A stretch of DNA of 24,000 nt, taken from contig JACABB010000021.1 of assembly GCA_013376985.1 (NCBI GenBank), positions 69,327-93,326 of the forward strand. The letters are read 5' to 3'. Shown piece by piece: positions 9,499-24,000 of this stretch. Both the position numbers and the translations under genes were made by a program. The stretch is from Bacteroidales bacterium (GTDB taxonomy: Bacteria > Bacteroidota > Bacteroidia > Bacteroidales > Tenuifilaceae). The notes under the pieces were generated by a model that searched no databases, was not told the origin of the DNA, and worked only from the letters and a program-made list of their open reading frames with translations. The number at the start of each line of letters is the position of its first letter. Positions within the stretch are counted from its first letter, which is position 1.

Positions 9499-10266
9499 AT
9501 GAAACTTAATATTAAAAATCCACTCGTTTTTGTTGACCTCGAAACCACTGGTATTGATGTAATAAAAGATAGAATTGTTGAAATTGCTGTGCTTAAAATT
9601 CATGTTGATGGGAGGGAGGAACTAAAAATTAAAAGGGTAAACCCTGGAGTGCCAATTCCACCTGAAACGACTGCCATTCACGGTATTACTGATGAGGATG
9701 TAAAGAATGAGCCTTTGTTTAAGGAGGTGGCGAAATCATTGGCGAATTTTATCGAAGGATGTGATTTTGCAGGATTTAACTCAAATAAATTTGATTTTCC
9801 ATTACTTGCAGAAGAATTTCTTCGTGCTGGAGTTGATTTAGATCTTAGAAAACGTAAATTTATTGATGTTCAAACCATCTTTCATAAGATGGAAAAGAGG
9901 ACTCTGGGTGCGGCGCTTAAATTTTACTGTGATAAGGAGATAGAAAATGCGCATAGCGCAGGTGCCGATTCCTATGCAACCTATGAGGTACTTATGGCTC
10001 AACTAGATAAGTATAGTGATATTAAAAATGATGTCGAATTCCTTGCCGAATTTAGCGCTCAAACAAAAAATGTTGATTTTTTAGGAAGAATAATACTTGA
10101 TGAAAAGGGCGTTGAAGTTTTCAACTTTGGAAAGCACAAAGGCAAGTCGGTTGTTGAAATACTAGAAAAAGAACCTAGCTACTACGCATGGATGATGAAT
10201 GGCGAGTTTCCCCTATATACAAAGAAGGTTCTTACCAATATTTATTTGAAGATGAAGCAGAAGTGA
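9499..10266 (+). CDS. DEDDh 3'-5' exonuclease (DnaQ/epsilon-like)
   Basis: Exo I motif VFVDLETTG, Exo II FAGFNSNKFDFPLL and Exo III HSAGADSYATYEV. The track start is a TTG at 9460; ATG 9499 (MKLNIKN) is preferred. Confidence 0.8.
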   Translation: MKLNIKNPLVFVDLETTGIDVIKDRIVEIAVLKIHVDGREELKIKRVNPGVPIPPETTAIHGITDEDVKNEPLFKEVAKSLANFIEGCDFAGFNSNKFDFPLLAEEFLRAGVDLDLRKRKFIDVQTIFHKMEKRTLGAALKFYCDKEIENAHSAGADSYATYEVLMAQLDKYSDIKNDVEFLAEFSAQTKNVDFLGRIILDEKGVEVFNFGKHKGKSVVEILEKEPSYYAWMMNGEFPLYTKKVLTNIYLKMKQK

Positions 10267-10323
10267 TATTCCAAAGTATAATATTCAAAACTACAAAACA
10301 TCATTACCTAACTAAATACATAT

Positions 10324-10358
10324 AAACAATCCCATCTTTTAAGAGATTGGGATTGTTT
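10324..10358 (+). terminator. stem-loop downstream of the exonuclease gene
   Basis: aaacaatccc...gggattgttt forms a 10-bp stem, with an extra atct/agat extension that includes a bulge. The trailing sequence is only weakly T-rich. Confidence 0.5.
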
Positions 10359-10517
10359 AATTAACGCGAGTTCGATGTAAGTATAACATACTGATCCTAA
10401 GCATGGTGTTAGATTGTTACTTTGTCATGCTGAACGAAGTGAAGCATCTAGTCTTTAGGCGATTAGATCCTTCACTTCGCTCAGGATGACACCTTACATC
10501 GAACTCACGTTAATTAA
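10357..10517. repeat. 161-bp MITE-like hairpin repeat, copy 1 (left flank of peptide island)
   Basis: About 25-bp terminal inverted repeats: ttaattaacgcgagttcgatgtaag / cttacatcgaactcacgttaattaa. An internal hairpin is gtcatgctgaacgaagtgaagcatc...gatccttcacttcgctcaggatgac. About 85% identical by eye to 20158-20318, in the same orientation. Confidence 0.8.
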
Positions 10518-10523
10518 TTACAA

Positions 10524-10724
10524 TTAGGTACTTTGAAACAAAGTTTTGCCACAAGTACATGAACCGCCTGTACAAGCACCACCAGTGCAAGCACCGCCTG
10601 TGCAATCACCACCCCAACACAAACCACCACTGCAATCACCACCTTTAATTTCACCCATTTCTTTAGCGTCCATTAACTGTGATAAGTTCAAGCTTTCACT
10701 TACAAAATCTTGAAGTTTTTTCAT
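10524..10724 (-). CDS. RiPP precursor A1: 29-aa GG leader plus 37-aa Cys/Gly-rich core (7 Cys, CxGGx pentads)
   Basis: MKKLQDFVSESLNLSQLMDAKEMGEIKGG | DCSGGLCWGGDCTGGACTGGACTGGSCTCGKTLFQST. It has a double-glycine leader, lies next to an rSAM/SPASM gene and shares a cluster with a C39-ABC exporter. Confidence 0.85.
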   Translation of the reverse strand: MKKLQDFVSESLNLSQLMDAKEMGEIKGGDCSGGLCWGGDCTGGACTGGACTGGSCTCGKTLFQST

Positions 10725-10750
10725 GATTAAAACATATTAAATTTATTTTT

Positions 10751-10810
10751 ACAGTAACCATTACCCATTACTGCTTGGATTTTCCTGAATCGAGGCACAG
10801 GAGAGCCATA
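10751..10810 (-). promoter_or_regulatory. conserved 5' leader element, copy 1 (upstream of precursor A1)
   Basis: About 60 nt, starting 26 nt upstream of the ATG and shared with three other precursors. It contains a CAGUAAU-GGGUAAUG-GUUACUG hairpin on the minus strand. Confidence 0.7.
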
Positions 10811-10852
10811 GAGTATGAAAATATTGATAGATATTAACTTCCTGAGAAAATA

Positions 10853-12376
10853 TTAAATTATTGGATTAATAAATGCTGGTGCTTTTTTGCAGCGAGGATC
10901 AGGGTAATCCCAATTTTCGTCGCCATATACTTTTAGCACATCTGCCCAACATTTGTTTGGATATTTATTGTAGCATTCATCTAGTAGTTCACAATTTTTG
11001 CAGGGGCTTTCATCCCTAAAATCATCTTTGGTAAAATTAACCCATTTCAGGGCTGCTGGGGAATTCCATATCTCTTCAATTGAATTTTCGAGGATGTTTC
11101 CGATAATAAACTTGTTTTTCCAGTACATCTGTTCGCAGATTGTCACATTTCCATCCGGTAGAATGTAAATATGCGAGCGATTTGCAGAGCAGGATGCTCC
11201 TGGAAAAGATTTACTTCCTTGTTCTGCAGTAAAAAATCCTCTATTAATGTAGGATTTATCGATCCCAATTTTAAGTGTATTTAGTTTATTCAACTCATCG
11301 AGATATATGAAAGCATCATCCCTACTTTGTTTGTCGAGTTTTATTTTTTCAAATTCGTTCGAAGTGTACAGCGAGCGATATGCAATGCGAACCTGCCACT
11401 CTTTAATTCTTTTCAAAGTTGACAAATAGTTGTACATCTCGCTTAGTTCTTCTTTGCCAGAATTTAAATTTGTTAGTACGCTGATTACATGGTAGGGTAG
11501 TTCATATTTATCCATCAACTCCAAGGTGTGCTTCATTTTATCGATATAACTTTTTTGTACACCTAGTAGTTGGTTTATTTTTTCCTTTGTTATTAAGTCG
11601 AAGGATATTTGGAAAGTTAAATTTGGGAATTGCTTCAATTTTTTAATATCATTTTCATTGATTGGAATTTTTGTGGATATTAAATTTCTATCGTAACCAG
11701 AGTTACTTAATTCACATAACAACTCGTACCATCTATTGTATAGGAAAAATTCCCCTCCTCCAAGATTTATATTTTTAATTCTTAGTTTTTTAGATTCACT
11801 AATAATTTCTTTAATTCTACTAAAGGGAATTGAACATATAATGTTTTTTTCTCTATCTGCATAACAATATAAACAGTTTGTAACGCATTGATTAGTTAAC
11901 ATAACTGTAATTGAAGAAGGGCAGTGGAATAATCTTTGTGTTTCAAAATCAAGTTCTTGAAAAACGAAATCTTCTGGCTTGTATTCATAATTAATTTTTA
12001 ATTTTTCGGAGTATTCTATTATTATTTTTTTCGGAAAACTAAAAACTACCCCATCATATTCAGTATGGATTATCTCCTCATTTTCAATATAAGGACTTAT
12101 AATCTTTTCTGCTTCAAGTTTACTTAGATCAAGAAATTCACTCAAATTTTCTAAAGCCTGCTCTAGGGTTGTGGGAGTGGAGAAAAAAGAAAGGAGCATT
12201 GCTTGAATAGGGTGGATTATAGAAAACCACCCTTTACTTGATGTTTCACATTGATTTATACTATTATATGTAATTAACGTTCGTTTAATATCATTTTTAT
12301 AATTATAATCTGGATTTAAAACATATTTTTTACCCATATAATTTCTGAAATTATTTTGTGAATAAGATCCTCGCAT
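10853..12376 (-). CDS. radical SAM / SPASM-domain peptide maturase, paralog 1
   Basis: CX3CX2C cluster in TNQCVTNCLYCYAD and GGGE SAM-binding motif (NLGGGEFFLY). A C-terminal Cys-rich SPASM-like region reads GASCSANR...ICEQ...CKNCELLDECYNKYPNKCW...DPRCKK. An N-terminal extension of about 150 aa is compatible with a peptide-recognition (RRE/PqqD-like) domain. An alternative start lies at 12337 (MGKKYVLNPDY). Confidence 0.9.
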   Translation of the reverse strand: MRGSYSQNNFRNYMGKKYVLNPDYNYKNDIKRTLITYNSINQCETSSKGWFSIIHPIQAMLLSFFSTPTTLEQALENLSEFLDLSKLEAEKIISPYIENEEIIHTEYDGVVFSFPKKIIIEYSEKLKINYEYKPEDFVFQELDFETQRLFHCPSSITVMLTNQCVTNCLYCYADREKNIICSIPFSRIKEIISESKKLRIKNINLGGGEFFLYNRWYELLCELSNSGYDRNLISTKIPINENDIKKLKQFPNLTFQISFDLITKEKINQLLGVQKSYIDKMKHTLELMDKYELPYHVISVLTNLNSGKEELSEMYNYLSTLKRIKEWQVRIAYRSLYTSNEFEKIKLDKQSRDDAFIYLDELNKLNTLKIGIDKSYINRGFFTAEQGSKSFPGASCSANRSHIYILPDGNVTICEQMYWKNKFIIGNILENSIEEIWNSPAALKWVNFTKDDFRDESPCKNCELLDECYNKYPNKCWADVLKVYGDENWDYPDPRCKKAPAFINPII

Positions 12377-12434
12377 TAGAAAGTCTTTGAGTTATTTAAA
12401 TTCCTAATCATTTAATAACTATTTTGAAATAAAA

Positions 12435-12467
12435 CTATTCCATACATTGAATTGTTGTATGGAATAG
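12435..12467 (-). terminator. stem-loop between precursor B and rSAM paralog 1 (terminator/attenuator)
   Basis: Perfect 12-bp stem ctattccataca / tgtatggaatag with a 9-nt loop, followed on the minus strand by UUUUAUUU. Confidence 0.65.
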
Positions 12468-12497
12468 CAATTTAGATGACAGTGAGATTGTTTGTTA

Positions 12498-12674
12498 TTA
12501 AATAATTCCACCTTCACATAAACCACCTGCACATATACCACCTTCGCAATAAACTCTGATTGTATCTTTACAATCCACAACTATTTTACCACCTGTGATT
12601 TCATCTAACTCTTTTGATTCCATTAAACTTGAAACATCAAGTTTTAATTTTGATAAATCTTTTAATTTTTTCAT
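12498..12674 (-). CDS. RiPP precursor B, absent from ORF track: 29-aa GG leader plus 29-aa core (4 Cys)
   Basis: Hand translation of the minus strand from ATG 12674 to TAA 12498 gives MKKLKDLSKLKLDVSSLMESKELDEITGG | KIVVDCKDTIRVYCEGGICAGGLCEGGII. At 58 aa it falls below the length of every ORF listed in the track. It is preceded by the conserved leader element. Confidence 0.78.
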   Translation of the reverse strand: MKKLKDLSKLKLDVSSLMESKELDEITGGKIVVDCKDTIRVYCEGGICAGGLCEGGII

Positions 12675-12699
12675 AAATAAGTTTTATTTAATTTGTTTT

Positions 12700-12757
12700 C
12701 AGTAACCTTTCCCCATTACTGTTTGGGGTTTCCTGATTTGAGGCGCAGGAGAGCCTT
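12700..12757 (-). promoter_or_regulatory. conserved 5' leader element, copy 2 (upstream of precursor B)
   Basis: Minus-strand sequence: UUAAGGCUCUCCUGCGCCUCAAAUCAGGAAACCCCAAACAGUAAUGGGGAAAGGUUACUG, 25 nt before the ATG. Confidence 0.7.
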
Positions 12758-12800
12758 AAAGTATATAAATATTGATAAATGTTCATTTTTTGACTAAATG

Positions 12801-14291
12801 CTAAATTATTGGATTAATAAATGCTGGTGCTTTTTTGCAGCGAGGATCAGGGTAATCCCAATTTTCGTCGCCATATACTTTTAGAACATCTGCCCAACAT
12901 TTATTTGGATATTTATTGTAGCATTCATCAAGTAGTTCGCAGTTTTTACAAGCACTTTCATCTCTGAAATCTTCTTTTTTCATATTTACCCATTTTAATG
13001 AGGCTGCTGAGTTCCATACTTCCTCGATTGAATTCTCAAGTATGTTACCAATGATAAACCTTTTTTTCCAGTACATTTGTTCGCAAATTGTTACATTCCC
13101 TTCGGGGAGAATATACATATGCGAACGATTTGCTGAGCATGATGAACCTAAAAATGATTTACTGCCATTCTCCGCTGTAAAATATCCTTTTTCAATAACA
13201 GATTTATCAATTGAAACTTTCAAGGTTTTAAGATTATTTAATTCCTCTAAATGCGCAAATACGTCTTGCCTGTCCTGTTCTTGAAGTTTTATACTTTCAA
13301 ATTCTGTAGAGCTATATAATGATCGATAGGCGATACGAGCCTGCCATTCTTTAATGTTTTTTAGCGTTGATAAATAGCTATGCATTTCGGTTAACTCTTC
13401 TTTGTTAGAGTTTAAGTTGGTGAGTACGCTTATTACATGATAAGAAAGACCATGCTTATCCATCAATTCCAAAGTGTGCTTCATCTTTTCAACATAACTC
13501 CCAGGTACATCCAATATCTTATTTATTTTTTGTTCTGAGAGAGAATCAAATGAGAATTGGTAGGTTAGATAAGGGAATTGTTTAAGTTTAATTATATCAT
13601 TTTCGCTTATGGGTACTTTTGTTGAAATAAAATTTTTATAAAATCCATACTTATACAACTCTGATAATAATTCGTACCAATTTTTATATAAAAAGAATTC
13701 ACCTCCACCAATCTGAATACTTTTAATTTTTAAATTTTTGGCTTCTTTAATTAATTCCTTTATTCGTTCGAACGGAATTGTGCATGTTACCTCTTGGCTT
13801 TTATCCGCATAGCAGTATATGCAATTTGTTACGCAGCGATTGGTTACCATAATGGTTATTACGGCGGGACTCTGGTTTAATCTTACCGAATCAAAATCCA
13901 ACTCTTTATAAACAAATTCATCAGGTTTGTAAGTATATAAAATCTTTAAATTTTCGTGATATTTAATAATGATTTGTTTTGGAAACTTGAAGTTATGTCC
14001 ATTATATTCGGTGAAAATAGCCTCTTTATTCTCTATAAAAGGTTTAATTATATTGAGAGTTTCCTCTTTACTTAAACTCAAAAATTCGCTCAAATCTTCA
14101 ACCGCTTTGTCAATACTAATAGGGTTAGAGAAAAATGAGAGAATCATTGCTTGAACAGGGTGAATAACGGATACCCACTCTGTATTGGTTTGCTCACATT
14201 GAGCATCTGAATTTGCAATGATTATACTTCTTTTTATGTCATTTTTGAAGTTATAATCTGGATTTAAAACATAAAGATCCTCGCTTATCAT
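12801..14291 (-). CDS. radical SAM / SPASM-domain peptide maturase, paralog 2
   Basis: Same architecture as paralog 1: TNRCVTNCIYCYAD, IGGGEFFLY and a SPASM-like Cys-rich C-terminus. The last 49 aa are identical to paralog 1. Confidence 0.9.
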   Translation of the reverse strand: MISEDLYVLNPDYNFKNDIKRSIIIANSDAQCEQTNTEWVSVIHPVQAMILSFFSNPISIDKAVEDLSEFLSLSKEETLNIIKPFIENKEAIFTEYNGHNFKFPKQIIIKYHENLKILYTYKPDEFVYKELDFDSVRLNQSPAVITIMVTNRCVTNCIYCYADKSQEVTCTIPFERIKELIKEAKNLKIKSIQIGGGEFFLYKNWYELLSELYKYGFYKNFISTKVPISENDIIKLKQFPYLTYQFSFDSLSEQKINKILDVPGSYVEKMKHTLELMDKHGLSYHVISVLTNLNSNKEELTEMHSYLSTLKNIKEWQARIAYRSLYSSTEFESIKLQEQDRQDVFAHLEELNNLKTLKVSIDKSVIEKGYFTAENGSKSFLGSSCSANRSHMYILPEGNVTICEQMYWKKRFIIGNILENSIEEVWNSAASLKWVNMKKEDFRDESACKNCELLDECYNKYPNKCWADVLKVYGDENWDYPDPRCKKAPAFINPII

Positions 14292-14370
14292 AAGTAGATT
14301 TATTAAAATAAATGTTGAAATAAAGAAGTTGATTATAAAAGTTTTAAAACAATTTGAAAAAAATAATAAA

Positions 14371-14402
14371 ACAATCCTATCCCTTGAAAGGAATAGGATT
14401 GT
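14371..14402 (-). terminator. stem-loop between precursor A2 and rSAM paralog 2 (terminator/attenuator)
   Basis: acaatcctat...ataggattgt forms a 10-bp stem, extendable with one bulge. On the minus strand it is followed by UUUAUUAUUUUUUU. Confidence 0.7.
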
Positions 14403-14425
14403 CTAATAACGATATCCAACAATGA

Positions 14426-14653
14426 TTAGTTGGCCATCTCTTCTTCGGCAAAAGTATTCTTGCCAAGAGTGCATTCGCCGCATGTGCATGAACCACATGT
14501 GCATGAACCACCTGTGCATGCACCACCTGTACAATCACCCCCCCAGCACAAACCACCACTACAATCACCACCTTTAATTTCGCTCATTTCTTTAGCGTTC
14601 ATTAACTGTGATAAGTTCAAGTCTTCGCTTACAAAATCTTGAAGTTTTTTCAT
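14426..14653 (-). CDS. RiPP precursor A2: 29-aa GG leader plus 46-aa Cys/Gly-rich core (9 Cys)
   Basis: MKKLQDFVSEDLNLSQLMNAKEMSEIKGG | DCSGGLCWGGDCTGGACTGGSCTCGSCTCGECTLGKNTFAEEEMAN. The leader is near-identical to A1. Confidence 0.85.
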   Translation of the reverse strand: MKKLQDFVSEDLNLSQLMNAKEMSEIKGGDCSGGLCWGGDCTGGACTGGSCTCGSCTCGECTLGKNTFAEEEMAN

Positions 14654-14678
14654 GGTTAAAACAGATTAATTTTTTTTT

Positions 14679-14738
14679 ACAGTAACCTTTCCCCATTACT
14701 GTTTGGAGTTTCCTGATTCGAGGCGCAGGAGAGCCTTA
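14679..14738 (-). promoter_or_regulatory. conserved 5' leader element, copy 3 (upstream of precursor A2)
   Basis: Minus-strand sequence: CUAAGGCUCUCCUGCGCCUCGAAUCAGGAAACUCCAAACAGUAAUGGGGAAAGGUUACUGU. Confidence 0.7.
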
Positions 14739-15343
14739 GATTATCCTGTAAAATATTATAGGGCTTTTGTTTTTTGCGCTAATAATTCTAATAATAGAAT
14801 TTAGAGCATGCAGTCCATGAAAATTTTTAGAGTTAGTTCAAGTATTAAATGTAAATGTTTTATATTCTGTTGCATTTTACCCTTTGATCATATTATTAAG
14901 AGTAAAACTAGTTGTGATTATTCAATAAACATCAATCATTCAAGGAACAGACAATGCCGTGATTTTTTAAACAAGTGTTTTTACACAGCAAGGCACTTAT
15001 ATTCACAGGTATTAAAAATAAAAATATAAAAAAATATTTGATAAATAAAAAAATAGTACAACTTAAATGGTTACTAAAATGTAAACGATATATACATTAT
15101 CGTGCATATGTCATTTACATTTTCTAAGTATAGGAAATTTCTATAATATTGATTTTTAAAAAATGTAGTTGTGATTTTTTATTTTCTTTAAAAGAGTTTA
15201 TTTAGCGGGTGTTAATCATATAAATTAGTTTTTTAAAATCAATAAATCTCCATTTTAAATTTTTATATACAGTTTAGATATTCATTGTTTAATCTGATAT
15301 TCAATGGATTTTTTATTCAAAAAAATATTTTAAGGACGATTAG

Positions 15344-15369
15344 CTACCCTGTCAATTTTGACAGGGTAG
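15344..15369 (-). terminator. perfect hairpin downstream of precursor C
   Basis: ctaccctgtcaa tt ttgacagggtag is a 12-bp palindrome. A T-run on the minus strand begins only about 15-20 nt later, so terminator function is uncertain. Confidence 0.45.
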
Positions 15370-15533
15370 AAAAACTAACTCAAAAAATTTTATTTTGTAT
15401 CCAAAGGAAAAATGAATTGAAGTCAAATAATGTTAAAGGACTTATTTCTTAAGAACTCCTATTTATGAATAAATAATTAAAACAAATATTAGAATTATTT
15501 AGATAAGGAATTTCCTTTGGGTATGAGGGATTA

Positions 15534-15743
15534 TTACCAAACAAAACGACCAAGACCATCTGTACACATTCCACCAACACAGCCCCAGAAACCATTATGA
15601 CAGTCATTAACATCTGTTGTTAATCCCTGATAGCATGAAAAAAATCCATTCTCACATCCACCTTGAATGTCTCTCATCTCCTTAGCATTCATTAATTGTG
15701 ATAAGTCCAAATTTTCACTTGTAAAATCTTTAAGTTTTTTCAT
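15534..15743 (-). CDS. RiPP precursor C: 29-aa GG leader plus 40-aa aromatic/Cys core (5 Cys)
   Basis: MKKLKDFTSENLDLSQLMNAKEMRDIQGG | CENGFFSCYQGLTTDVNDCHNGFWGCVGGMCTDGLGRFVW. It has the same leader family and the same upstream element but a different core. Confidence 0.8.
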   Translation of the reverse strand: MKKLKDFTSENLDLSQLMNAKEMRDIQGGCENGFFSCYQGLTTDVNDCHNGFWGCVGGMCTDGLGRFVW

Positions 15744-15769
15744 AAGTAAATCATATTAAATTTAGTTTT

Positions 15770-15829
15770 ACAGTAACCTTTCCCCGTTACTGTTTGGGGT
15801 TTCCTGATTTAAGGTACAGGTGAACCTTA
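15770..15829 (-). promoter_or_regulatory. conserved 5' leader element, copy 4 (upstream of precursor C)
   Basis: Minus-strand sequence: CUAAGGUUCACCUGUACCUUAAAUCAGGAAACCCCAAACAGUAACGGGGAAAGGUUACUGU. Confidence 0.7.
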
Positions 15830-16472
15830 GAGGATGCCGTAAAATTTTATTGAACATTTACTTTATGTGTTAACTATTACAATTTATTATGCAAACATAT
15901 GTAATAAGTTGCATGTCAATATGTAAAATATTGATTTAAATATATGTATATAAGCGTTTTGTGATTTTTTATAAATTTCGGTTTTAAAACAACTTCTAAT
16001 CATAAATTAATACCATGTAAAATAATGATTATGTTTTTTTAGTGAAATGTAATTCGCAACTATTCTATAAACTGAGTTATTCAATGAACAAGTGAAAATG
16101 GAGGATTGATGAAGATTTTTTTCAATCAATAAGTATTTTATTATACAGTAAAGCGCTCATTTTGTTAAAAATAAATATAAAAGTATAAAATATTTATGAT
16201 AAGTAAAATATGTAATGTGGCAAAAAGTAGCATAATTTATGTGATTTTCGAAATATGAATTATATATACGCAATAATATATGTGTAATTTGTATTTAATT
16301 GGCGTAGGCAATGTCTATAATATTGATTTTTAAAAGATGAGGTTATGAGACGATTTTAATATTTGGTATTTTAGCCTTGATTATTATCAATGATTAAAAT
16401 AATTCATATACATTGATTTTATCGATTTTGAAACTATCCTTCGTTTATTAATCTTGGATATAACACTTCTTT

Positions 16473-18572
16473 TTAAACCAATCGTGTTATCCCATTTTCA
16501 AGAGTGTAAATACGATCAAATTGCGTTAATAAATTGGAGCGGTGTGTAATTATAACAATCGCCATATTTTGTTTTTGTTGTTCTAATAGCTGCATAACAA
16601 AACCTTCTGTATGACGATCCATTGCTGCTGTGGGCTCATCTAATAGTAAGAGTTGAGGTTGCTTGTAAAGGGCACGTGCCAATGCAACTAATTGTTTCTG
16701 TCCACCTGAAATATTTACTCCTTCCTCACCAAGCAGAGTGTAATAGAATTGCGGAAAAGCTTTGAAGTACTTATCAAAACCAAAGTCCTCACAGAATTTA
16801 ATTATTTGTTTCGCTTCAGCTGCGGAGTCGGATAAGCAAATATTATCCAACAGAGTACCATTAAAAAGACTTATCTCCTGTGGAACAACGCTTGTCTTAC
16901 TCCTTAATTCGAAATTGTTTATATTATCAATATTGATATCGTTTATGGATATTGTTCCATTTTCCTGATGATACAATTTTTGAAGAATCTGTATTAATGT
17001 ACTTTTCCCACAACCACTTTCGCCTATAATGGCAATTGTTTCACCTTTTTTTACTTCAAAATTAACGTTGGTTAAAAGAGGTAAACTCCCTGGAAATCGA
17101 AAGGAAATTTGTGAAACTTTTAATTCATTGAAAGACAAATTAGCAGTATTGCTTTCTGTTTCGGGGTTATATTCGGGCGAGATGCTAACAAAATCATACA
17201 TTCTATCAAAGGCAATTTTTGCTCCCTGCACTTGTATGTTTAATAGTGCCAAACGACCAACTCCGGGTAAAAGACTTCCTGTCATTGAGAGTACGGCTAT
17301 CATTGCTCCAACAGTAAACGAACTGGTTATTACCAAATACGATGAGCTTGCTATAATTGCAGCAATTATAATTGTTGCGGCTGTATCGCCATACAAACTC
17401 AGATTGGTTTGGGTTTTACCTAATTGTTCTACCTTTTGTTGATAATGGCCGTAAATAGATTGATTTAATTTACTGAAAAAGGACTCTTTATTAAACGTTT
17501 TAATAGCGTATATCCCTTGAATTGTATTTATATAATTACTTTCGTTTTTTGCATAGGCAACCATCACCTCTCGTTGATCTTTAACAACTTTATGGTGAAA
17601 GCGATATACGATATAAAAAAAAATAGGAATACTAGTAAGTGATATGAATCCCAGAGTAATGGAATAGAGGAAGATAAATATAATTGATACCAGAACTACC
17701 ATTCCATCGATTAATACATTCCCAACCAAATAGCTTATTGTGTTTTGTATGCGTGAGGTATCGTTCATTCGCGCAATAAGCTCCCCTGTTTTACGATTAT
17801 CAAAAAAAGATTTTGGGAGAAATAGTAAACTACTATAGAAACTATTAATTATGCGAACGTTAAAGTTGCGACTCTGACCAACTAAAAATATTTGTCGTAT
17901 CCATGTTATTCCTCCTCGGAGTAGAAGTAGGATTGTTAAAATGGCCATCCCCGGTATAAGGCGATTTATAGTGTGATGCGGCAGAATATCATCAACTAGT
18001 TTTTGTGAGAAAAGTGCTGTGGTAGTTCCAAGAATAGCAATTAGAATGCCTATTCCAAGGCAAATGCTAAGTAAATTTATATCTTCTTTAACAAGATTAT
18101 ATATCCATCTCTTTTTTGCATTTTTAATGGTTTCGGATTTTATAAACTCTTTATTTGGCGTGAGTTGTAATAATGTTTTTGATACCCATATTTTATTCAA
18201 TTCTTCTTCATTTATGTACTTCATTCCTTCCGCTGGATCACCCACTAAAAAAAGGTTGTCGCAGAAATCGTAGCATACCATGTAGTGTTGCAGGCGGTTA
18301 TCAATAAAAACATGTATAATAAAAGGTTTTTTCAGATCCTTAATATGTGCCAAATCCGCTTGGCTTCCTACTGCATCAAACCCATTCTTTTGTGCTGCTT
18401 GGTACAGCCCCAAAAGAGTTGTTCCCTGTTTGGATGTGCCGCTTGTCTCTCTCAGATTCTCAAGAGGAACATGACCCCCGTAGTATTTTATTATTGAAGC
18501 AAGACATGCCACTCCGCAATCACTCTGATCTTGCTGTCTTACAAATGTTTTTGCTAATTTCTTAGAGATCAT
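16473..18572 (-). CDS. bacteriocin/RiPP ABC exporter with N-terminal C39 double-glycine peptidase domain
   Basis: N-terminal QQDQSDCGVACLASII carries the C39 catalytic Cys context. It also has a six-helix TMD, Walker A GESGCGKST, ABC signature ISGGQKQ and Walker B LLLLDEPT. Confidence 0.92.
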   Translation of the reverse strand: MISKKLAKTFVRQQDQSDCGVACLASIIKYYGGHVPLENLRETSGTSKQGTTLLGLYQAAQKNGFDAVGSQADLAHIKDLKKPFIIHVFIDNRLQHYMVCYDFCDNLFLVGDPAEGMKYINEEELNKIWVSKTLLQLTPNKEFIKSETIKNAKKRWIYNLVKEDINLLSICLGIGILIAILGTTTALFSQKLVDDILPHHTINRLIPGMAILTILLLLRGGITWIRQIFLVGQSRNFNVRIINSFYSSLLFLPKSFFDNRKTGELIARMNDTSRIQNTISYLVGNVLIDGMVVLVSIIFIFLYSITLGFISLTSIPIFFYIVYRFHHKVVKDQREVMVAYAKNESNYINTIQGIYAIKTFNKESFFSKLNQSIYGHYQQKVEQLGKTQTNLSLYGDTAATIIIAAIIASSSYLVITSSFTVGAMIAVLSMTGSLLPGVGRLALLNIQVQGAKIAFDRMYDFVSISPEYNPETESNTANLSFNELKVSQISFRFPGSLPLLTNVNFEVKKGETIAIIGESGCGKSTLIQILQKLYHQENGTISINDINIDNINNFELRSKTSVVPQEISLFNGTLLDNICLSDSAAEAKQIIKFCEDFGFDKYFKAFPQFYYTLLGEEGVNISGGQKQLVALARALYKQPQLLLLDEPTAAMDRHTEGFVMQLLEQQKQNMAIVIITHRSNLLTQFDRIYTLENGITRLV

Positions 18573-18581
18573 TTTAAATGA

Positions 18582-19088
18582 TTAAAAGTTTTGAATCGCA
18601 TCAATTTTTACTTCTCCTTTAAAATGTTTTGTTAGAAGATGTTTTTCATTGTATGCGAAAACGGATGGGATTGTCAATGTGCCGAACGTATTGTAGAAAT
18701 CATTATCATTTGTTTGGAGTACAGCTATGTTTGAGTAATTCTGAAGATTATTATTTTCTTTAAAAGCAATTATTTTATCAGTTGTTTCCGAAGAGGTTAG
18801 AATGATTTGATACGATGAAAATCGCTCTATGTTTTTGGTGATTTCCTTCACTTCGTATATGCAATGTTCACATTCGCTATTAAAATAGATTATGATTACT
18901 GGACTATTTTCGGCGATGTTTTTCTTTGAATAATCAACACCGTCCAAAGTTTTAAAATGGAAATTTGGTAACTTTTGAATGTTTGTAAGAGTCTGATTTT
19001 TTTTATCCAAACTTCTACAAATAAGGAAAATGAGAAGACCTATAACCAAAAGGCTTAAGCCCCCAAAGATTATTTTTATTTTACCCAT
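18582..19088 (-). CDS. membrane-anchored thioredoxin-fold thiol-disulfide oxidoreductase (TlpA/ResA-like)
   Basis: 168 aa with an N-terminal TM helix and a CEHC (CxxC) motif in the context IIIYFNSECEHCIYE. It overlaps the upstream gene by 8 nt, which suggests translational coupling. Confidence 0.75.
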   Translation of the reverse strand: MGKIKIIFGGLSLLVIGLLIFLICRSLDKKNQTLTNIQKLPNFHFKTLDGVDYSKKNIAENSPVIIIYFNSECEHCIYEVKEITKNIERFSSYQIILTSSETTDKIIAFKENNNLQNYSNIAVLQTNDNDFYNTFGTLTIPSVFAYNEKHLLTKHFKGEVKIDAIQNF

Positions 19089-19740
19089 TGCTTATAGTTA
19101 AAAACATGATGAGTAATAGCCATATAATTAACCCTACACCATAAGATGAGGCAACCATTTTAAGCATGGATGAGTAACCCTTATTTAAAACAGTTTTTAA
19201 TCCCAATGCCAACGCTAACCAGTAAAAAAACTCAAAAACATTAAATTGTTGCAATGGGTAAATAAGCCAACTTGCCACCTCCTTTATATTAAATAGGTTG
19301 ACAAGCGAAAGGGGATAGAAGTTGTTTATTTCCTGCAAAGTATGTGGGGGATACATTAAAAAGTATGCCATTTTAGATAAATCGGCAAGTAGAAATATTA
19401 CTTCGGCAATTACTGTAATTTTGAATAATTTGGCGAAACTAATATTATGCCCGAATACTAAAGCCCCTATATTGAGTGAAAAACTGACAAGGACCAATTT
19501 CAAAGCCACTAGTAGTGGCAAAATCACATAGTTAATCCACGAAAATTTTTCCCGAATCTCAAATATTCGTGAAATGCGTTCTGCGCTAAGTTGTTCCCCT
19601 AGAGCGTTATAATACAGATTATCCGTTATAACAAATACATTTAGTATAAAACTCGAAACGATATATAATAAACATACTATAAGGAAAAACCATTTTGCAT
19701 TTATCTTCTCAAAATGATTAGCAAGGGCTTGGGTTTTCAT
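19081..19740 (-). CDS. polytopic membrane protein, candidate immunity/accessory protein
   Basis: 219 aa with about 5 hydrophobic helices by eye. It sits between the bacteriocin-like peptide gene and the thioredoxin-like gene. No motif recognised. Confidence 0.55.
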   Translation of the reverse strand: MKTQALANHFEKINAKWFFLIVCLLYIVSSFILNVFVITDNLYYNALGEQLSAERISRIFEIREKFSWINYVILPLLVALKLVLVSFSLNIGALVFGHNISFAKLFKITVIAEVIFLLADLSKMAYFLMYPPHTLQEINNFYPLSLVNLFNIKEVASWLIYPLQQFNVFEFFYWLALALGLKTVLNKGYSSMLKMVASSYGVGLIIWLLLIMFLTISNG

Positions 19741-19816
19741 TCAATACTAAATAATTATAACGAATAAAATTATGATTTTGGAAAAATCACTTACGATTAG
19801 TTGATTTAAATAAATG

Positions 19817-19841
19817 CAGAGACGGAATTATTCCGCCTCTG
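19817..19841 (-). terminator. stem-loop immediately after the bacteriocin-like peptide gene
   Basis: Minus-strand CAGAGGCGGAA UAA UUCCGUCUCUG forms an 11-bp stem with one G-U pair, followed by CAUUUAUUU. Confidence 0.6.
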
Positions 19842-19853
19842 TATTATATTGTA

Positions 19854-20009
19854 TTAGCAAGCAGCAGCACCAACAGCAAAACCAATTAAAGCTGCAAATG
19901 GTCCCCAATGAGCACCTACAATAGTAGCAGCAGCTACACATGTCCAATAATCATCACCCTCAAGACCACCTTGAACTTTGCTCATTTCGTTAAAATCTAA
20001 AGTTTTCAT
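19854..20009 (-). CDS. class-II-bacteriocin-like peptide, absent from ORF track: 15-aa GG leader plus 36-aa hydrophobic core
   Basis: Hand translation of the minus strand from ATG 20009 to TAA 19854 gives MKTLDFNEMSKVQGG | LEGDDYWTCVAAATIVGAHWGPFAALIGFAVGAAAC. It has a short double-glycine leader, GxxxG-type motifs and two Cys residues. Confidence 0.65.
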   Translation of the reverse strand: MKTLDFNEMSKVQGGLEGDDYWTCVAAATIVGAHWGPFAALIGFAVGAAAC

Positions 20010-20157: not shown

Positions 20158-20318
20158 TTAATTAACGTGAACTCGATCTAAGCATAACATCTTGATTGCT
20201 AGTATAGCATTAGATTGTTGCTTTGTCATGCTGAACGAAGTGAAGCATCTCGTCTTTAGATAACTAGATCCTTCGCTTCGCTCAGGATGACACCTTACAT
20301 TGAACTCACGTTAATTAA
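20158..20318. repeat. 161-bp MITE-like hairpin repeat, copy 2 (right flank of peptide island)
   Basis: Same length, same orientation and same ttaattaacg...cgttaattaa termini as 10357-10517. The internal gtcatgctgaacgaagtgaagcatc...cttcgcttcgctcaggatgac hairpin is present. Confidence 0.8.
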
Positions 20319-20485
20319 GAAATAGAATATCAAGTGTGAATTGTTAGCATGTTAAACATCAACAATATTAGGCCATTCAACTTTAATTGATTTTAACAGG
20401 TGTTCCATTTATTTGTACTATTATTCCATTGAATAGATATATTTGCATGTCAATTAACTACATAATCATTAAAATCTTTGAGAAT

Positions 20486-23434
20486 ATGAATCTGGTTAGG
20501 AAGAAACTACTAACAACTTTGTTATTAGCATTAATTGCTGTTGGCGCATTATCTCAGAATGCGATAGATTCACTTAAAAACGCTTTGGAAAAATCATCCA
20601 GCGATACTTCGAAAATTATTACAATGCTTAGTCTGGCTGAAAATTATTTCTATACAGATGAAAACAAGTCGCGAGAGTATTTTAATAACGCTAAAACATT
20701 GTTGGATAAGGTTCAATTTAAGAACGGAACTGCTTACTCTTATTATGTTAATGGTTATTTACTTAAAAATACACCTGCTGCGGCATTGGAGAGTTTTAAC
20801 AAATCTCTAATAATTTATACCGAGCTAAAGAATAATCCAGGAATAGCCAAAGCTAACTTAGCAATTGGTAGTACATATATTAATCAATCTAAATTGGATA
20901 AGGGAATGCCTTACTATTCTACTGCCTTGCAGATTTATCAATCATTAAATGATAGAAAAGGCATTGGAGTATGTTACTCTGCTTTAGGCAATATTTATGC
21001 TCATCAGGGAAAATTTAAAATGGCTCTTGATTATAACAAAAAAGCGTTGAAGTACCTTACATACCAAAGTTATGCATATTTTAATGAGCATGTAAGTATT
21101 GCAAATAATTATTCAGCTTTGGGTGAGGCGAAAATGGCTTTACTTTACTATGATAGTCTATTGAATACTTTAAAGAATAAGAATTATTTTGATATCCTTT
21201 CGAATGTTTATGCCAATTTAGGAGCTATTTACTCAGCATCTCAGAACTACAATAAAGCAAAGCAGTGCTATAAATCATCCATAGAATATGGGACAAAAGG
21301 AAAAAACGATTATTACTCCATTGTTGCATGTTTAACAATGTCGGATTTATATATTAACCTAAACCAGCCAGACTCAGTAATTAATTTACTTAAAAAGAAC
21401 TCGCCAACCATTATTCGGTATAAATCAAAAACTTTTTTGTCTTATTACTACCAATTTTTATCCTCAGCCTATGAAGTTAAAGGCGATATAAACTCTGCCC
21501 TTAAATATTATAAATCCTTTAAAAGCGCAGAAGATTCTTTGAATATCGAACAATCTAATCAACGTCTTTACGAGCTACAAACCTCATTGGATGTTGAGAA
21601 AAAGGATAAAGAGATTGACCTACTAAACAAGGAGAATCAATATAAATCACTTCAATTATCTAAACAGAGGATTATGATTTTACTTATTCTGCTGTCAACG
21701 GTATTATTCTTAGTTATGGCATTTGTTTTATACACTCGTTTCCGATTAAAGCACAAGCTGGTTGGTATGTTGGAAAATAAGAATAGAGAGATTGAGCAAC
21801 AGCAGCAGGAAATTATGGCAATGAACGATATGCTTGGAAAGCAGAATGAAAGTTTGCTGGAATTGGACGATATGAAATCCCGATTCTTTACCAACATATC
21901 ACATGAGTTCCGAACACCTTTATCGCTTATAATAGGACCTTTAACATCTATGTTGGAGGAATCCAACAACAAGGAAGCGCAAAATGAATTCCGACTCATG
22001 CTAAAACATGCAAATAGCCTATTAAATCTTATAAACCAATTGCTCGATTTATCTAAACTTCAAAAAGCAAGTCTTAATTTACAACTTTCGTATTACGATA
22101 TAAATACATTTTTAAATATACTTATTGATTCATTTTCTGGGCGTGCAAAAGATCTATCCATTGCACTTACCTATAATTCAAATCCTTTGCCTTTGTTTGT
22201 TTGGTTTGATAGAGATAAGGTGGGGACAATTGTATTTAATATCATTTCGAATGCATTAAAGCATACCGATAAAGGAGGTTTTGTAGAGGTTTCTTTGGCC
22301 AGAATAGGAGAGGATGATAATTATGTTGAAATTATGATTAGCGATAATGGAATAGGTATAGAATCGCATGAGCTAAAGAATATTTTTGAACCCTTTTATC
22401 AATCCAACGCAACAATAAATCGAAAGATTGAAGGCAGTGGTATTGGATTAGCTTTAGCTAAGGAGTTGGTTGAGCTACATGGAGGTGAAATTTCGGTGAA
22501 GAGCGAGGCAGGAAAAGGGGCTCAGTTTACAATAGTTTTAGCCGTGAATAAGCATCTTTTACCATTCGCAGAGATAATGTCCGATGAAGATCAGAAAGTT
22601 GATGAAATCGATAGATTTCCAAAACTTCATGAATTCGATTTAGGTGGCGAAGTCGAACCTAAAATAATAAAGGGAGAGACAACAATTCTTGTTGTTGAGG
22701 ATAATGATGATATGAGAGATTACATATCAAAATCGTTAGCGCAGGATTATCAAATTATAGTGGCAGTAAATGGTAGGGAAGGGTTTGATAAAGCAATGGA
22801 GGTATCGCCAGACCTTATAATTACGGATGTTATGATGCCCGAAATGAATGGGTATGAAATGACAAAGCTGATTAAAAACAATCAGCAAACAAGTCATATT
22901 CCTGTAATCATTCTTACTGCAAAAGCCTCCGAGGAGAGTAAGATTGAAGGACTTGAGGCCGCTGCTGATGATTATTTAGTTAAGCCCTTTAATAAAGCAG
23001 AGTTGCTGTTGAGGATTAGAAATACAATATCAAATCGACAAAAGCTAAGGGATAAGTTTCAGAAATCTATCACAGTAAACCCTTCGGAAGTAACAGCAAC
23101 ATCATTAGATGAACAGTTTTTAACAAAAGCACTTCAAATTATTGAAAATCATTTAGCAGATGCCGAGTTTTCCGTGAATGATTTTTGCGATGAAATTGGA
23201 ATGAGTAAGACCAACGTGTATAGAAAACTCAAGGCCTTAACCAATCAATCCTTTACAGAATTTATGCGTTGCATAAGGTTAAAACGGGCAGCATCATTGC
23301 TAGTAATGAAATCAGGCAACTTAACTGAAATTGCTTACGAAACAGGATTTTCCAACCTATCCTACTTCTCCAGAAGCTTTAAGGAACAGTTTGGGGTAAG
23401 TCCATCGGAGTATACAACAAAAGTAAAGAATTGA
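20486..23434 (+). CDS. hybrid two-component regulator: TPR sensor region, TM, histidine kinase, receiver, AraC-type HTH
   Basis: Signal/anchor MNLVRKKLLTTLLLALIAVGALS, TPR-like repeats and a TM helix (IMILLILLSTVLFLVMAFVLY). HisKA box FFTNISHEFRTPL, HATPase G-boxes (DNGIGI, GSGIGLA) and receiver (ILVVEDNDDM...DVMMPEMNG...KPF). The C-terminal AraC HTH reads GFSNLSYFSRSFKEQFGVSPSEY. The track start at 20387 is a TTG; ATG 20486 is preferred. Confidence 0.85.
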   Translation: MNLVRKKLLTTLLLALIAVGALSQNAIDSLKNALEKSSSDTSKIITMLSLAENYFYTDENKSREYFNNAKTLLDKVQFKNGTAYSYYVNGYLLKNTPAAALESFNKSLIIYTELKNNPGIAKANLAIGSTYINQSKLDKGMPYYSTALQIYQSLNDRKGIGVCYSALGNIYAHQGKFKMALDYNKKALKYLTYQSYAYFNEHVSIANNYSALGEAKMALLYYDSLLNTLKNKNYFDILSNVYANLGAIYSASQNYNKAKQCYKSSIEYGTKGKNDYYSIVACLTMSDLYINLNQPDSVINLLKKNSPTIIRYKSKTFLSYYYQFLSSAYEVKGDINSALKYYKSFKSAEDSLNIEQSNQRLYELQTSLDVEKKDKEIDLLNKENQYKSLQLSKQRIMILLILLSTVLFLVMAFVLYTRFRLKHKLVGMLENKNREIEQQQQEIMAMNDMLGKQNESLLELDDMKSRFFTNISHEFRTPLSLIIGPLTSMLEESNNKEAQNEFRLMLKHANSLLNLINQLLDLSKLQKASLNLQLSYYDINTFLNILIDSFSGRAKDLSIALTYNSNPLPLFVWFDRDKVGTIVFNIISNALKHTDKGGFVEVSLARIGEDDNYVEIMISDNGIGIESHELKNIFEPFYQSNATINRKIEGSGIGLALAKELVELHGGEISVKSEAGKGAQFTIVLAVNKHLLPFAEIMSDEDQKVDEIDRFPKLHEFDLGGEVEPKIIKGETTILVVEDNDDMRDYISKSLAQDYQIIVAVNGREGFDKAMEVSPDLIITDVMMPEMNGYEMTKLIKNNQQTSHIPVIILTAKASEESKIEGLEAAADDYLVKPFNKAELLLRIRNTISNRQKLRDKFQKSITVNPSEVTATSLDEQFLTKALQIIENHLADAEFSVNDFCDEIGMSKTNVYRKLKALTNQSFTEFMRCIRLKRAASLLVMKSGNLTEIAYETGFSNLSYFSRSFKEQFGVSPSEYTTKVKN

Positions 23435-23570
23435 ATAATGAACAAGGAATACCGATTTTAGATTTTAGAAGATTTCTGAAAACAGACTGATTACACAAAC
23501 ATCAAAAATCATAAACCGAGCGTTTTTTGCGAGCTCAGCGAAGCTAATCGTTGATCCTTGTTCTTAAATC

Positions 23571-23699
23571 TAACGCAAGTTTGATGTAAGTATAATATAT
23601 TGATCCTAAGTATAGCATTAGATTGTTGCTTGTCATGCTGAACGAAGTGAAGCATCTCGTCTTTAGATAACTAGATCCTTCGCTCCGCTCAGGATGACA
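23571..23699. repeat. partial third copy of the MITE-like hairpin repeat
   Basis: taacgcaagtttgatgtaagtataat...gtcatgctgaacgaagtgaagcatctcgtctttagataactagatccttcgctccgctcaggatgac. The right terminal inverted repeat is missing and is replaced by the 155-bp tandem array. Confidence 0.7.
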
Positions 23700-24000
23700 A
23701 TGGATTCATTATGGAATTCACCATTATTCAGGAAAGGGGTTGACGTTTCTAGAGCATACTGTTTCTTGTCATGCTGAACGGAGTGAAATCCGAAGGATTC
23801 GCTGAAAGCAACCATCTTGTCTTTAGAAGATCCTTCGCTTCGCTCAGGATGACAATGGATTCATTATGGAATTCACCATTATTCAGGAAAGGGGTTGACG
23901 TTTCTAGAGCATACTGTTTCTTGTCATGCTGAACGGAGTGAAATCCGAAGGATTCGCTGAAAGCAACCATCTTGTCTTTAGAAGATCCTTCGCTTCGCTC
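23700..24000. repeat. tandem repeat, 155-bp period, at least 1.9 units, truncated by window end
   Basis: The sequence from 23701 (tggattcattatggaattcacc...) recurs exactly from 23856. All 145 comparable bases are identical. Each unit contains a gtcatgctgaacggagtgaa...cttcgcttcgctcaggatgac hairpin. Confidence 0.85.

Follow-up and report, generated by a model that had tools for sequence, protein, structure and literature searches.

A putative radical-SAM peptide-maturation cassette joined to a bacteroidetocin-type export module in a Bacteroidales genome

Genes and layout of the island

The window analysed here is a stretch of 24,000 nucleotides from a Bacteroidales bacterium of the Tenuifilaceae (GenBank assembly GCA_013376985.1, contig JACABB010000021.1, positions 69,327 to 93,326 of the forward strand). 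Between positions 10524 and 20009 it carries an island that most likely directs the production of cross-linked, Cys-rich secreted peptides. In the open reading frame (ORF) listing every gene of the island lies on the minus strand, as do all island features given below. In the direction of transcription these are the genes of peptide E, a polytopic membrane protein, a thioredoxin-fold protein, a C39-peptidase ABC exporter (PCAT), precursors D and C, rSAM2, precursor B, rSAM1 and precursor A, the two rSAM proteins being radical S-adenosylmethionine (SAM)/SPASM enzymes. A previous sequence-only reading had described this block of five double-glycine (GG) leader genes, two radical-SAM/SPASM paralogues, a PCAT, a CxxC protein and a membrane protein. 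The block is indeed present at these positions and on this strand, and so are the motifs pointed out at that time: CX3CX2C, GGGE, the SPASM Cys, the C39 Cys context, the ABC motifs, CEHC and the GG leaders. The island appears to be composed of two joined modules: module 1 (10524-15743), formed by four Cys/Gly-rich precursors and two radical-SAM enzymes, and module 2 (16473-20009), comprising peptide E, the polytopic membrane protein, the thiol oxidoreductase and the PCAT.

The four precursors of module 1 all start with a 29-residue GG leader. Precursor A (10524-10724; 66 amino acids) has a 37-residue core, DCSGGLCWGGDCTGGACTGGACTGGSCTCGKTLFQST, with 7 Cys, 11 Gly and C-x-G-G-x pentads, while precursor B (12498-12674; 58 amino acids) has the core KIVVDCKDTIRVYCEGGICAGGLCEGGII with 4 Cys. 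Precursor C (14426-14653; 75 amino acids), to which A is 86% identical, possesses a 46-residue core with 9 Cys in pentads, and precursor D (15534-15743; 69 amino acids) the core CENGFFSCYQGLTTDVNDCHNGFWGCVGGMCTDGLGRFVW with 5 Cys and C-x-x-G-x units. The maturase genes are intercalated: rSAM1 (10853-12337) encodes 494 amino acids from the ATG at 12337 and rSAM2 (12801-14291) 496 amino acids. The mechanical ORF of rSAM1 reaches 12376 (507 amino acids), the likely true start being 12337, which matches NCBI protein P0008 (494 amino acids, same NCBI contig). Two hairpins separate precursors from enzymes, one between B and rSAM1 (12434-12468; 13 bp followed by a U-rich run, attenuator/terminator-like), the other between C and rSAM2 (14369-14404; 16 bp and a T-run, resembling an intrinsic-terminator-like attenuator).

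This cassette is tandemly duplicated with a period of 1,948 nt. To note, positions 10748-11047 and 12696-12995, which cover the last 300 nt of the rSAM genes and the following leader region, share 87% DNA identity, compared to 66-69% for the remainder of the rSAM genes, and the C-terminal 49 residues of both enzymes are identical. This suggests either a recent gene conversion or a very strong constraint on the SPASM tail.

In module 2, the PCAT (16473-18572; 699 amino acids) is above the Pfam gathering scores for Peptidase_C39 (119.9 bits), ABC_membrane and ABC_tran, and exhibits a QDQSDCG catalytic-Cys context, Walker A, an ISGGQ signature and Walker B. The narrower NCBIfam PCAT models are not reached (TIGR01193, 383.9 vs 523.85 bits; TIGR03796, 395.3 vs 853.3 bits). 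The thioredoxin-fold thiol-disulfide oxidoreductase (18582-19088; 168 amino acids) scores 34.9 bits with Pfam AhpC-TSA, above the gathering score, and harbors a CEHC motif and one N-terminal membrane anchor. The polytopic Yip1-like membrane protein (19081-19740; 219 amino acids) shows four clear hydrophobic segments and a weaker one in a simple hydropathy scan; its homologues are 56 proteins across Bacteroidota, some of which are named "Yip1 domain-containing protein" in UniRef. A terminator-like hairpin (19817-19841) lies 3' of the gene of peptide E (19854-20009), a class-II bacteriocin-type peptide of 51 amino acids, whose GG leader of 15 residues precedes a 36-residue hydrophobic core rich in Gly and Ala and containing 2 Cys. 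Peptide E yields 22.4 bits with Pfam Bacteriocin_IIc, below the cut-off of 27.1.

The radical-SAM/SPASM enzymes and their precursors

rSAM1 and rSAM2 are 70% identical over their full length and both exceed the Pfam gathering scores for Radical_SAM (PF04055) and SPASM (PF13186), with 47.5 and 56.8 bits, respectively, for rSAM1. The TIGR04085 model returns 38.9-39.9 bits on the two enzymes against a cut-off of 27. Both carry the CX3CX2C motif (C153/C157/C160) and GGGE; these three Cys and the seven SPASM Cys (C385, C403, C448, C451, C457, C465 and C485) are invariant in 31 family members. Between the two paralogues, the N-terminal domain is the most divergent part (61% identity) and the SPASM region the least (89%), the N-terminal divergence being consistent with a diverged substrate recognition.

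An AlphaFold model of rSAM2, built on the 31-sequence alignment (pLDDT 91, pTM 0.88), presents β strands in residues 6-43 and three helices in residues 45-85, forming a β3-α3 domain, followed by the radical-SAM barrel and the SPASM region. A Foldseek search of the PDB is headed by full-length alignments to three peptide maturases, namely SuiB (E 4e-18, about 505 aligned columns), SkfB and CteB. Viperin, PqqE and anSMEcpe rank below them with shorter alignments, anSMEcpe being 12th with only about 370 columns. At the sequence level, the top PDB match of the family profile is SkfB, a sactionine synthase. By analogy with SuiB and CteB, the predicted N-terminal domain is proposed to act in peptide recognition.

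It is barely credible that the rSAM proteins are non-peptide enzymes, such as a sulfatase maturase, a viperin-like defence enzyme or a cofactor enzyme (MoaA, NirJ). Generic core matches to viperin (PADLOC pVip, 49-53 bits, and PDB), MoaA and NirJ2 go in that direction, but they stay far below the curated cut-offs and are limited to the radical-SAM core. Furthermore, a SPASM domain is missing from viperins, while its seven Cys are invariant in this family; sulfatase and cofactor genes are absent nearby, and a conserved precursor adjoins the enzyme. The sequence-only reading had named sulfatase maturases as one example of an identity that would speak against peptide maturation; the fold, which best matches those of SuiB, SkfB and CteB, distinguishes the enzymes from them. 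Two specific candidates were considered and rejected: a defence system, for which PADLOC gave only generic viperin-core and ATPase matches, and an anaerobic sulfatase maturase, as no anSME family is found among the listed matches and no sulfatase gene in the window.

The enzyme family is large. Among the scored candidates, more than 588 proteins pass E 1e-5; more than 120 align at 39-74% identity over nearly their full length, and metagenomes of the human gut, the rumen, the termite gut and sediments contribute more than 532 confirmed loci. Bacteroides caccae, B. acidifaciens, Prevotella and Xylanibacter also encode members, those of cultured strains being just named "radical SAM/SPASM domain-containing protein" in RefSeq. 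A scan of 95 fetched loci for small ORFs combining at least two Cys with a GG or GA leader identified a precursor-type ORF near 81 of the 94 enzyme genes, usually ending 100-200 nt before the enzyme start; precursors often form arrays of two to four. Among these precursors the leader is conserved and the core variable. A conserved leader, a variable core and a fixed adjacency form the standard enzyme-substrate signature in ribosomal peptide pathways. The recurrence of precursor-enzyme pairs (81/94), together with the mutual conservation of the four leaders and of about 95 nt upstream of them, places the island beyond chance.

The five peptides of the window fall into two classes: A-D, Cys-rich substrates with a long leader, and E, a bacteriocin of the unmodified type with a short one. 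The earlier mention of five GG-leader precursors thus holds for the leaders, but not for a single class of precursors. The leaders of A-D follow the pattern MKKL[QK]D[FL]...GG and precede cores rich in Cys (4-9) and Gly. Hydrophobic residues are found at positions -4, -7 and -12 in 5/5 window leaders, a pattern that C39 peptidase domains usually recognise; the final 15 residues in the A-D leaders therefore resemble an ordinary export signal. Their first 14 residues constitute an extension not found in peptide E, and this extension may well be the part read by the maturases.

One may consider that A-D are unmodified, disulfide-bonded class-II bacteriocins handled by the oxidoreductase and the PCAT, the radical-SAM enzymes acting elsewhere. 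The island does contain a thiol oxidoreductase, an enzyme type thought to form the disulfides of bacteroidetocins (PMC6671954), and no enzyme gene directly follows A or D. Nevertheless, this is very unlikely: the loci in which a precursor adjoins the enzyme (81/94) all lack homologues of the oxidoreductase and of the membrane protein, the conserved 14-residue leader extension is missing from the unmodified-type peptide E, and the enzyme displays the three-domain layout of peptide maturases.

The cores are built on a five-residue period. Precursor A contains the succession CSGGL-CWGGD-CTGGA-CTGGA-CTGGS-CTCG and precursor B CEGGI-CAGGL-CEGGI, while D harbors CENGF, CYQGL, CHNGF, CVGGM and CTDGL. 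In 75 unique cores, 144 of the 282 successive Cys-to-Cys spacings equal 5 (51%). Following the Cys, position +1 is biased towards Thr/Ser, position +2 towards Ser, Thr or Gly, position +3 towards Gly (36%) or Asn (13%), and position +4 towards Ala, Val or Ile (48%). Since no core residue other than Cys is universally conserved and the nearest relatives in sequence and fold include SkfB and CteB, a thioether is favored: if the island is indeed a peptide cluster, thioether formation at the pentad Cys can be put forward with moderate confidence as the likeliest chemistry. A more precise proposal, in which each C-x-x-G-x pentad gains one small ring linking the Cys sulfur to the Gly(+3) α carbon or to residue +4, remains tentative and rather doubtful. 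Should it be true, the products would take on a polycyclic, ladder-like form of up to nine rings, a pattern not yet described.

Alternatively, the enzymes might modify A-D by a non-thioether chemistry: C-C or C-O cross-links to aromatics, of which SuiB, DarE and the triceptide enzymes are examples, formylglycine-like Cys oxidation, or thio-oxazole-type heterocycles. SuiB, a Lys-Trp C-C cross-linker, is the top fold match, and weak matches of similar size are obtained with WgkB, DynA and SbtM. Besides, the sacti- and ranthipeptide models are all below their cut-offs (AlbA, 45 vs 850 bits; SkfB, 34.9-48.6 vs 300; StsB, 32.3 vs 625), PapB giving weak matches only, in 19 of the 31 family members. 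Conversely, only Cys and Gly(+3) are conserved across the 75 cores, aromatics being sporadic and absent from many, and the family profile finds a sactionine synthase, SkfB, as its top PDB sequence match. Such a chemistry is accordingly considered unlikely, and thioether formation is retained below.

The export module, regulatory elements and borders

Module 2 also stands alone in other genomes. A Tenacibaculum-type genome (locus L094) encodes a small GG peptide, the membrane protein, the thioredoxin-fold protein and the PCAT, but no radical-SAM gene. In L093, the membrane protein, thioredoxin and PCAT genes follow in the same order, again without a radical-SAM gene, and a GG peptide is encoded about 1.7 kb upstream with two genes between; L095 is a further case lacking a radical-SAM gene. 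The window PCAT is 49% identical to those of L093 and L094, compared to about 26% to the 60 PCATs that accompany the enzyme family. Conversely, the three other components of module 2 (peptide E, the membrane protein and the oxidoreductase) have homologues in 0/92 enzyme-family loci. As module 2 exists on its own elsewhere and its PCAT sides with the exporters of loci devoid of radical-SAM genes, the island is regarded as a junction of two modules. This comparison establishes what had first been read from the gene content, namely the union of a radical-SAM peptide-maturation island with an export module of the class-II bacteriocin type.

Locally, the five peptides have no exporter at their disposal other than the bacteroidetocin-type PCAT. 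Since the leader pattern is common to all five, this one PCAT would serve both peptide types. In the more tentative reading with one ring per pentad, recognition would run through a bipartite leader, and its export half would make the cassette compatible with unrelated PCAT modules, the bacteroidetocin exporter being one example.

The usual partners of the family differ from those in the window. Among the 92 enzyme-family loci, a co-directional PCAT is found in 60, a CarboxypepD_reg-domain protein of about 770 amino acids in 36, a protein of about 380 amino acids without Pfam match, taken to be of the membrane-fusion type, in 29, and a TPR regulator in 24. In two of the loci (L008, rSAM at 10001-11497; L009, rSAM at 10001-11491), two-gene precursor-enzyme cassettes without a PCAT within 10 kb adjoin LytTR or sigma-54 two-component regulators; that of L008 also adjoins a MacB/FtsX permease, a methyltransferase and several thioredoxin-like proteins. 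In L011, a Flavoprotein gene (PF02441; 14354-14920) is located downstream of the enzyme, after two unknown proteins of 525 and 350 amino acids; the PF02441 family includes cysteine decarboxylases of lanthipeptide pathways.

The stretches of about 95 nt ahead of the long-leader genes (10725-10820 for A, 12675-12770 for B, 14654-14750 for C and 15744-15840 for D) are conserved, with 80% mean column identity in an alignment that includes the coding start, and lie downstream of a TAnnTTT-like element. They have no match in Rfam, and their folding is no better than that of shuffled sequence (z -0.6 to -1.7); they could represent an operator/promoter or a sequence-specific RNA element. The 124-nt spacer that holds the B-rSAM1 hairpin has a folding z of -3.6. 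Attenuator hairpins are common in peptide-pathway operons and, by analogy, those between precursor and enzyme genes would favor precursor transcripts.

Peptide E is preceded, about 20 nt upstream, by the Rfam motif DUF805b (RF02914; 20031-20069), at 45.1 bits for a gathering score of 35.6. The motif is also above the gathering score in L004 (3187-3219), L013 (5498-5533) and L035 (235-269 and 2419-2451), the sites being immediately upstream of GG-leader peptide genes, of the unmodified and of the radical-SAM type alike. In 9 of 98 unique precursor genes, the AGAGTAGG tail of the motif terminates 20-26 nt upstream of the ATG, for an expectation of about 0.006 per 70 nt, and the conserved 5' leader of the four Cys-rich precursor genes (TCTAAGGCTCTCCTGCGCCTCGAATCAGGAAACTCCAAACAGTAATGGGGAAAGGTTACTGTAAAA) shares short strings with DUF805b. 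DUF805b may thus be a general 5' element of Bacteroidota GG-peptide genes rather than a DUF805-specific one.

The island is exactly bordered on both sides by palindromic repeats resembling miniature inverted-repeat transposable elements (MITEs). The left copy (10357-10517, about 160 nt) and the right copy (20158-20318) are 86% identical and in the same orientation. Their terminal inverted repeats, 25 nt long, begin with TTAATTAACG, and a GTCATGCTGAACGAAGTGAAGCATC hairpin lies further inside; folded as RNA, the repeat reaches -83.5 kcal/mol (z -14). Further copies are found at about 23565-23730 and 23741-23930, and with at least four copies in the window the repeat qualifies as a multi-copy element. 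The GC content of the island (0.25-0.33) is lower than that of the flanks (0.35-0.39). Inside the island, the long AT-rich non-coding stretches 14654-15533 and 15744-16472 (GC 0.25-0.27) revealed no gene remnants in a tblastn search with the window ORFs and 2,278 ORFs from the 95 related loci. On the other side of the right repeat copy, and divergent from the island, lies a gene on the plus strand (20387-23434) for a 1015-residue hybrid sensor with TPR repeats, HisKA/HATPase, a receiver and an AraC HTH. Compared to the TPR regulators of the family loci, it gives a generic TPR-repeat match only.

Proposed pathway and comparison with known systems

Taken together, the island is probably a functional ribosomal-peptide cluster, in which the two enzymes modify A-D in a leader-dependent manner and the PCAT cleaves after GG and exports the products. 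The direct evidence consists of the gene content, the domains and motifs, the precursor-enzyme adjacency, the pentad signature, the existence of a standalone module 2 and the affinity of the PCAT. From the sequences we infer that the enzymes act on peptides A-D, that the leader is bipartite and that the products have an antibacterial or signalling activity. In the proposed pathway, the N-terminal 14 or so residues of the leader (MKKLxDFxSExLxL) would dock onto the N-terminal domain of both enzymes, its C-terminal 15 residues serving as a standard double-glycine export signal. The [4Fe-4S]/SAM site held by CX3CX2C and two auxiliary SPASM clusters would abstract a hydrogen atom from the core, and the C-x-x-G-x pentads would become cross-linked, most likely by Cys-derived thioethers of the sactionine/ranthionine type, with at least one per peptide. 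The hairpins located between precursor and enzyme genes may keep the precursor transcripts in excess. Finally, the single PCAT would cut all five peptides after GG, then export them.

Several observations weigh against this pathway. Both enzymes stay below the curated cut-off of every NCBIfam equivalog, with the mycofactocin maturase as top match (60-72 bits vs a cut-off of 265), followed by many weak SPASM-family matches. The 31 diverse family members likewise reach no specific NCBIfam family, and NCBIfam and Pfam searches of all ten island proteins return no specific family for the enzymes or the precursors. As a consequence, the chemistry cannot be transferred by homology. SuiB, the top fold match, forms a C-C and not a C-S bond. 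The N-terminal residues 1-135 have no PqqD/RRE or other Pfam match, so that the peptide-recognition role of this domain rests on its predicted fold and on the analogy with SuiB and CteB. The nearest relatives of the enzymes (63-74% identity; L001, L008, L009 and L013) have no PCAT in the fetched DNA, and the link to an exporter is therefore not universal. Finally, the island lacks a membrane-fusion protein, an outer-membrane component and an immunity gene. The description of the locus as complete and self-contained stays plausible, but has to be tempered by the absence of these three components.

Concerning the role of the mature peptides, signals (pheromones) or metal-binding peptides may be envisaged instead of antibacterial toxins. 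The nearest relatives adjoin LytTR/histidine-kinase or sigma-54 two-component genes, TPR regulators occur in 24/92 loci, and the TPR hybrid sensor kinase/AraC gene (20387-23434) is directly beside the island; moreover, regularly spaced thiols could bind metal. However, regulators are common beside bacteriocin loci and do not define the role of the product, Cys consumed in thioethers cannot bind metal, and the co-located exporter module is of a kind shown to deliver antibacterial bacteroidetocins (PMC6671954). A signalling or metal-binding function thus seems rather improbable.

No chemically characterised radical-SAM-modified peptide from Bacteroidales was found in the literature searched. Members of the enzyme family abound in the Bacteroidales of gut, rumen and termites, among them the cultured Bacteroides caccae, B. 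acidifaciens and Prevotella, and the island, with its four natural substrates, two paralogous enzymes and co-located exporter, offers a compact test set from which the chemistry of the entire family could be defined. The island further indicates that a single bacteroidetocin-type exporter may be common to modified and unmodified GG-leader peptides, a point that bears on the modular assembly of antagonism or signalling loci in Bacteroidales.

The enzymes of sactipeptide and ranthipeptide systems (AlbA, SkfB, CteB/SCIFF and PapB/freyrasin) have in common with those of the window an N-terminal β3-α3 domain (predicted for the latter), a CX3CX2C core and a seven-Cys SPASM, as well as a leader-bearing, Cys-rich precursor adjoining the enzyme; SkfB and CteB emerge from the fold and profile matches. 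Freyrasin carries six CX3D/E units, and a short Cys motif is likewise repeated in the cores of the island. Yet the solved members display only 13-16% sequence identity with the window enzyme, the C-x-x-G-x core unit is devoid of a conserved Asp/Glu/Thr/Asn acceptor, and the host is a Gram-negative Bacteroidales.

The sequence-only reading had brought the island close to the GG-Bacteroidales system of Haft and Basu, composed of a TIGR04148 enzyme, a TIGR04149 precursor and a TIGR04150 pseudo-rSAM. The Bacteroidales host, the GG-type leader, the radical-SAM/SPASM enzyme and the in-silico-only status are indeed shared, but the resemblance does not extend to the families themselves. With TIGR04149, precursor B obtains 9.1 bits (E 1.2) for a cut-off of 25, and none of the other four peptides matches. 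TIGR04148 is missing from the best 25 families of either enzyme (the 25th being at about 30-34 bits), as well as from the 25 families that the 31 family members match most often. TIGR04150 gives 33.6 bits on rSAM1 for a cut-off of 250, and the island has no third rSAM-like gene, hence no pseudo-rSAM partner. The island thus appears to represent a family separate from the GG-Bacteroidales system.

Clusters termed "sactipeptide-like" have been reported in Bacteroides dorei, with a GG peptide, a radical-SAM protein weakly matching TIGR03962 and a C39 exporter (Walsh et al., 2015, PMC4573289), and a 2023 survey of Bacteroidales lists radical-SAM and PCAT clusters as uncharacterised (PMC10352776). 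Compared by description, the window enzymes behave like these published ones, as they also give a weak TIGR03962-type match, and this kind of cluster has thus already been seen in silico. The gut Bacteroides clusters differ by their HlyD-type partners, whereas the window possesses an oxidoreductase/membrane-protein module, two enzyme paralogues and four precursors.

As for module 2, the closest counterparts are the bacteroidetocins (proposed class IIf), whose four-gene region is necessary and sufficient for production, in E. coli too (Coyne et al., 2019, PMC6671954). Their thiol oxidoreductase is thought to form the disulfides of the peptide, and no immunity protein was found (PMC6671954). Module 2 agrees with the published four-gene description, which asks for a leader of 15-16 residues, at least two Cys, a five-transmembrane protein, an oxidoreductase and a PCAT; its own membrane protein shows four clear segments and a weaker one. 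Bacteroidetocin regions and module 2 share a 15-residue GG leader, two Cys, a polytopic protein, a thiol oxidoreductase and a PCAT, and both are devoid of a membrane-fusion protein and of an immunity gene. The likeness is one of architecture. In the island the peptide gene comes first, mature E is Gly/Ala-rich and 36 residues long instead of the published 42-53, and module 2 is joined to a radical-SAM cassette. Compared to all these systems, the island, whose enzyme and precursor family is covered by no curated model and has no characterised product, stands out by its C-x4 pentad signature and by its join to a bacteroidetocin-type export module.

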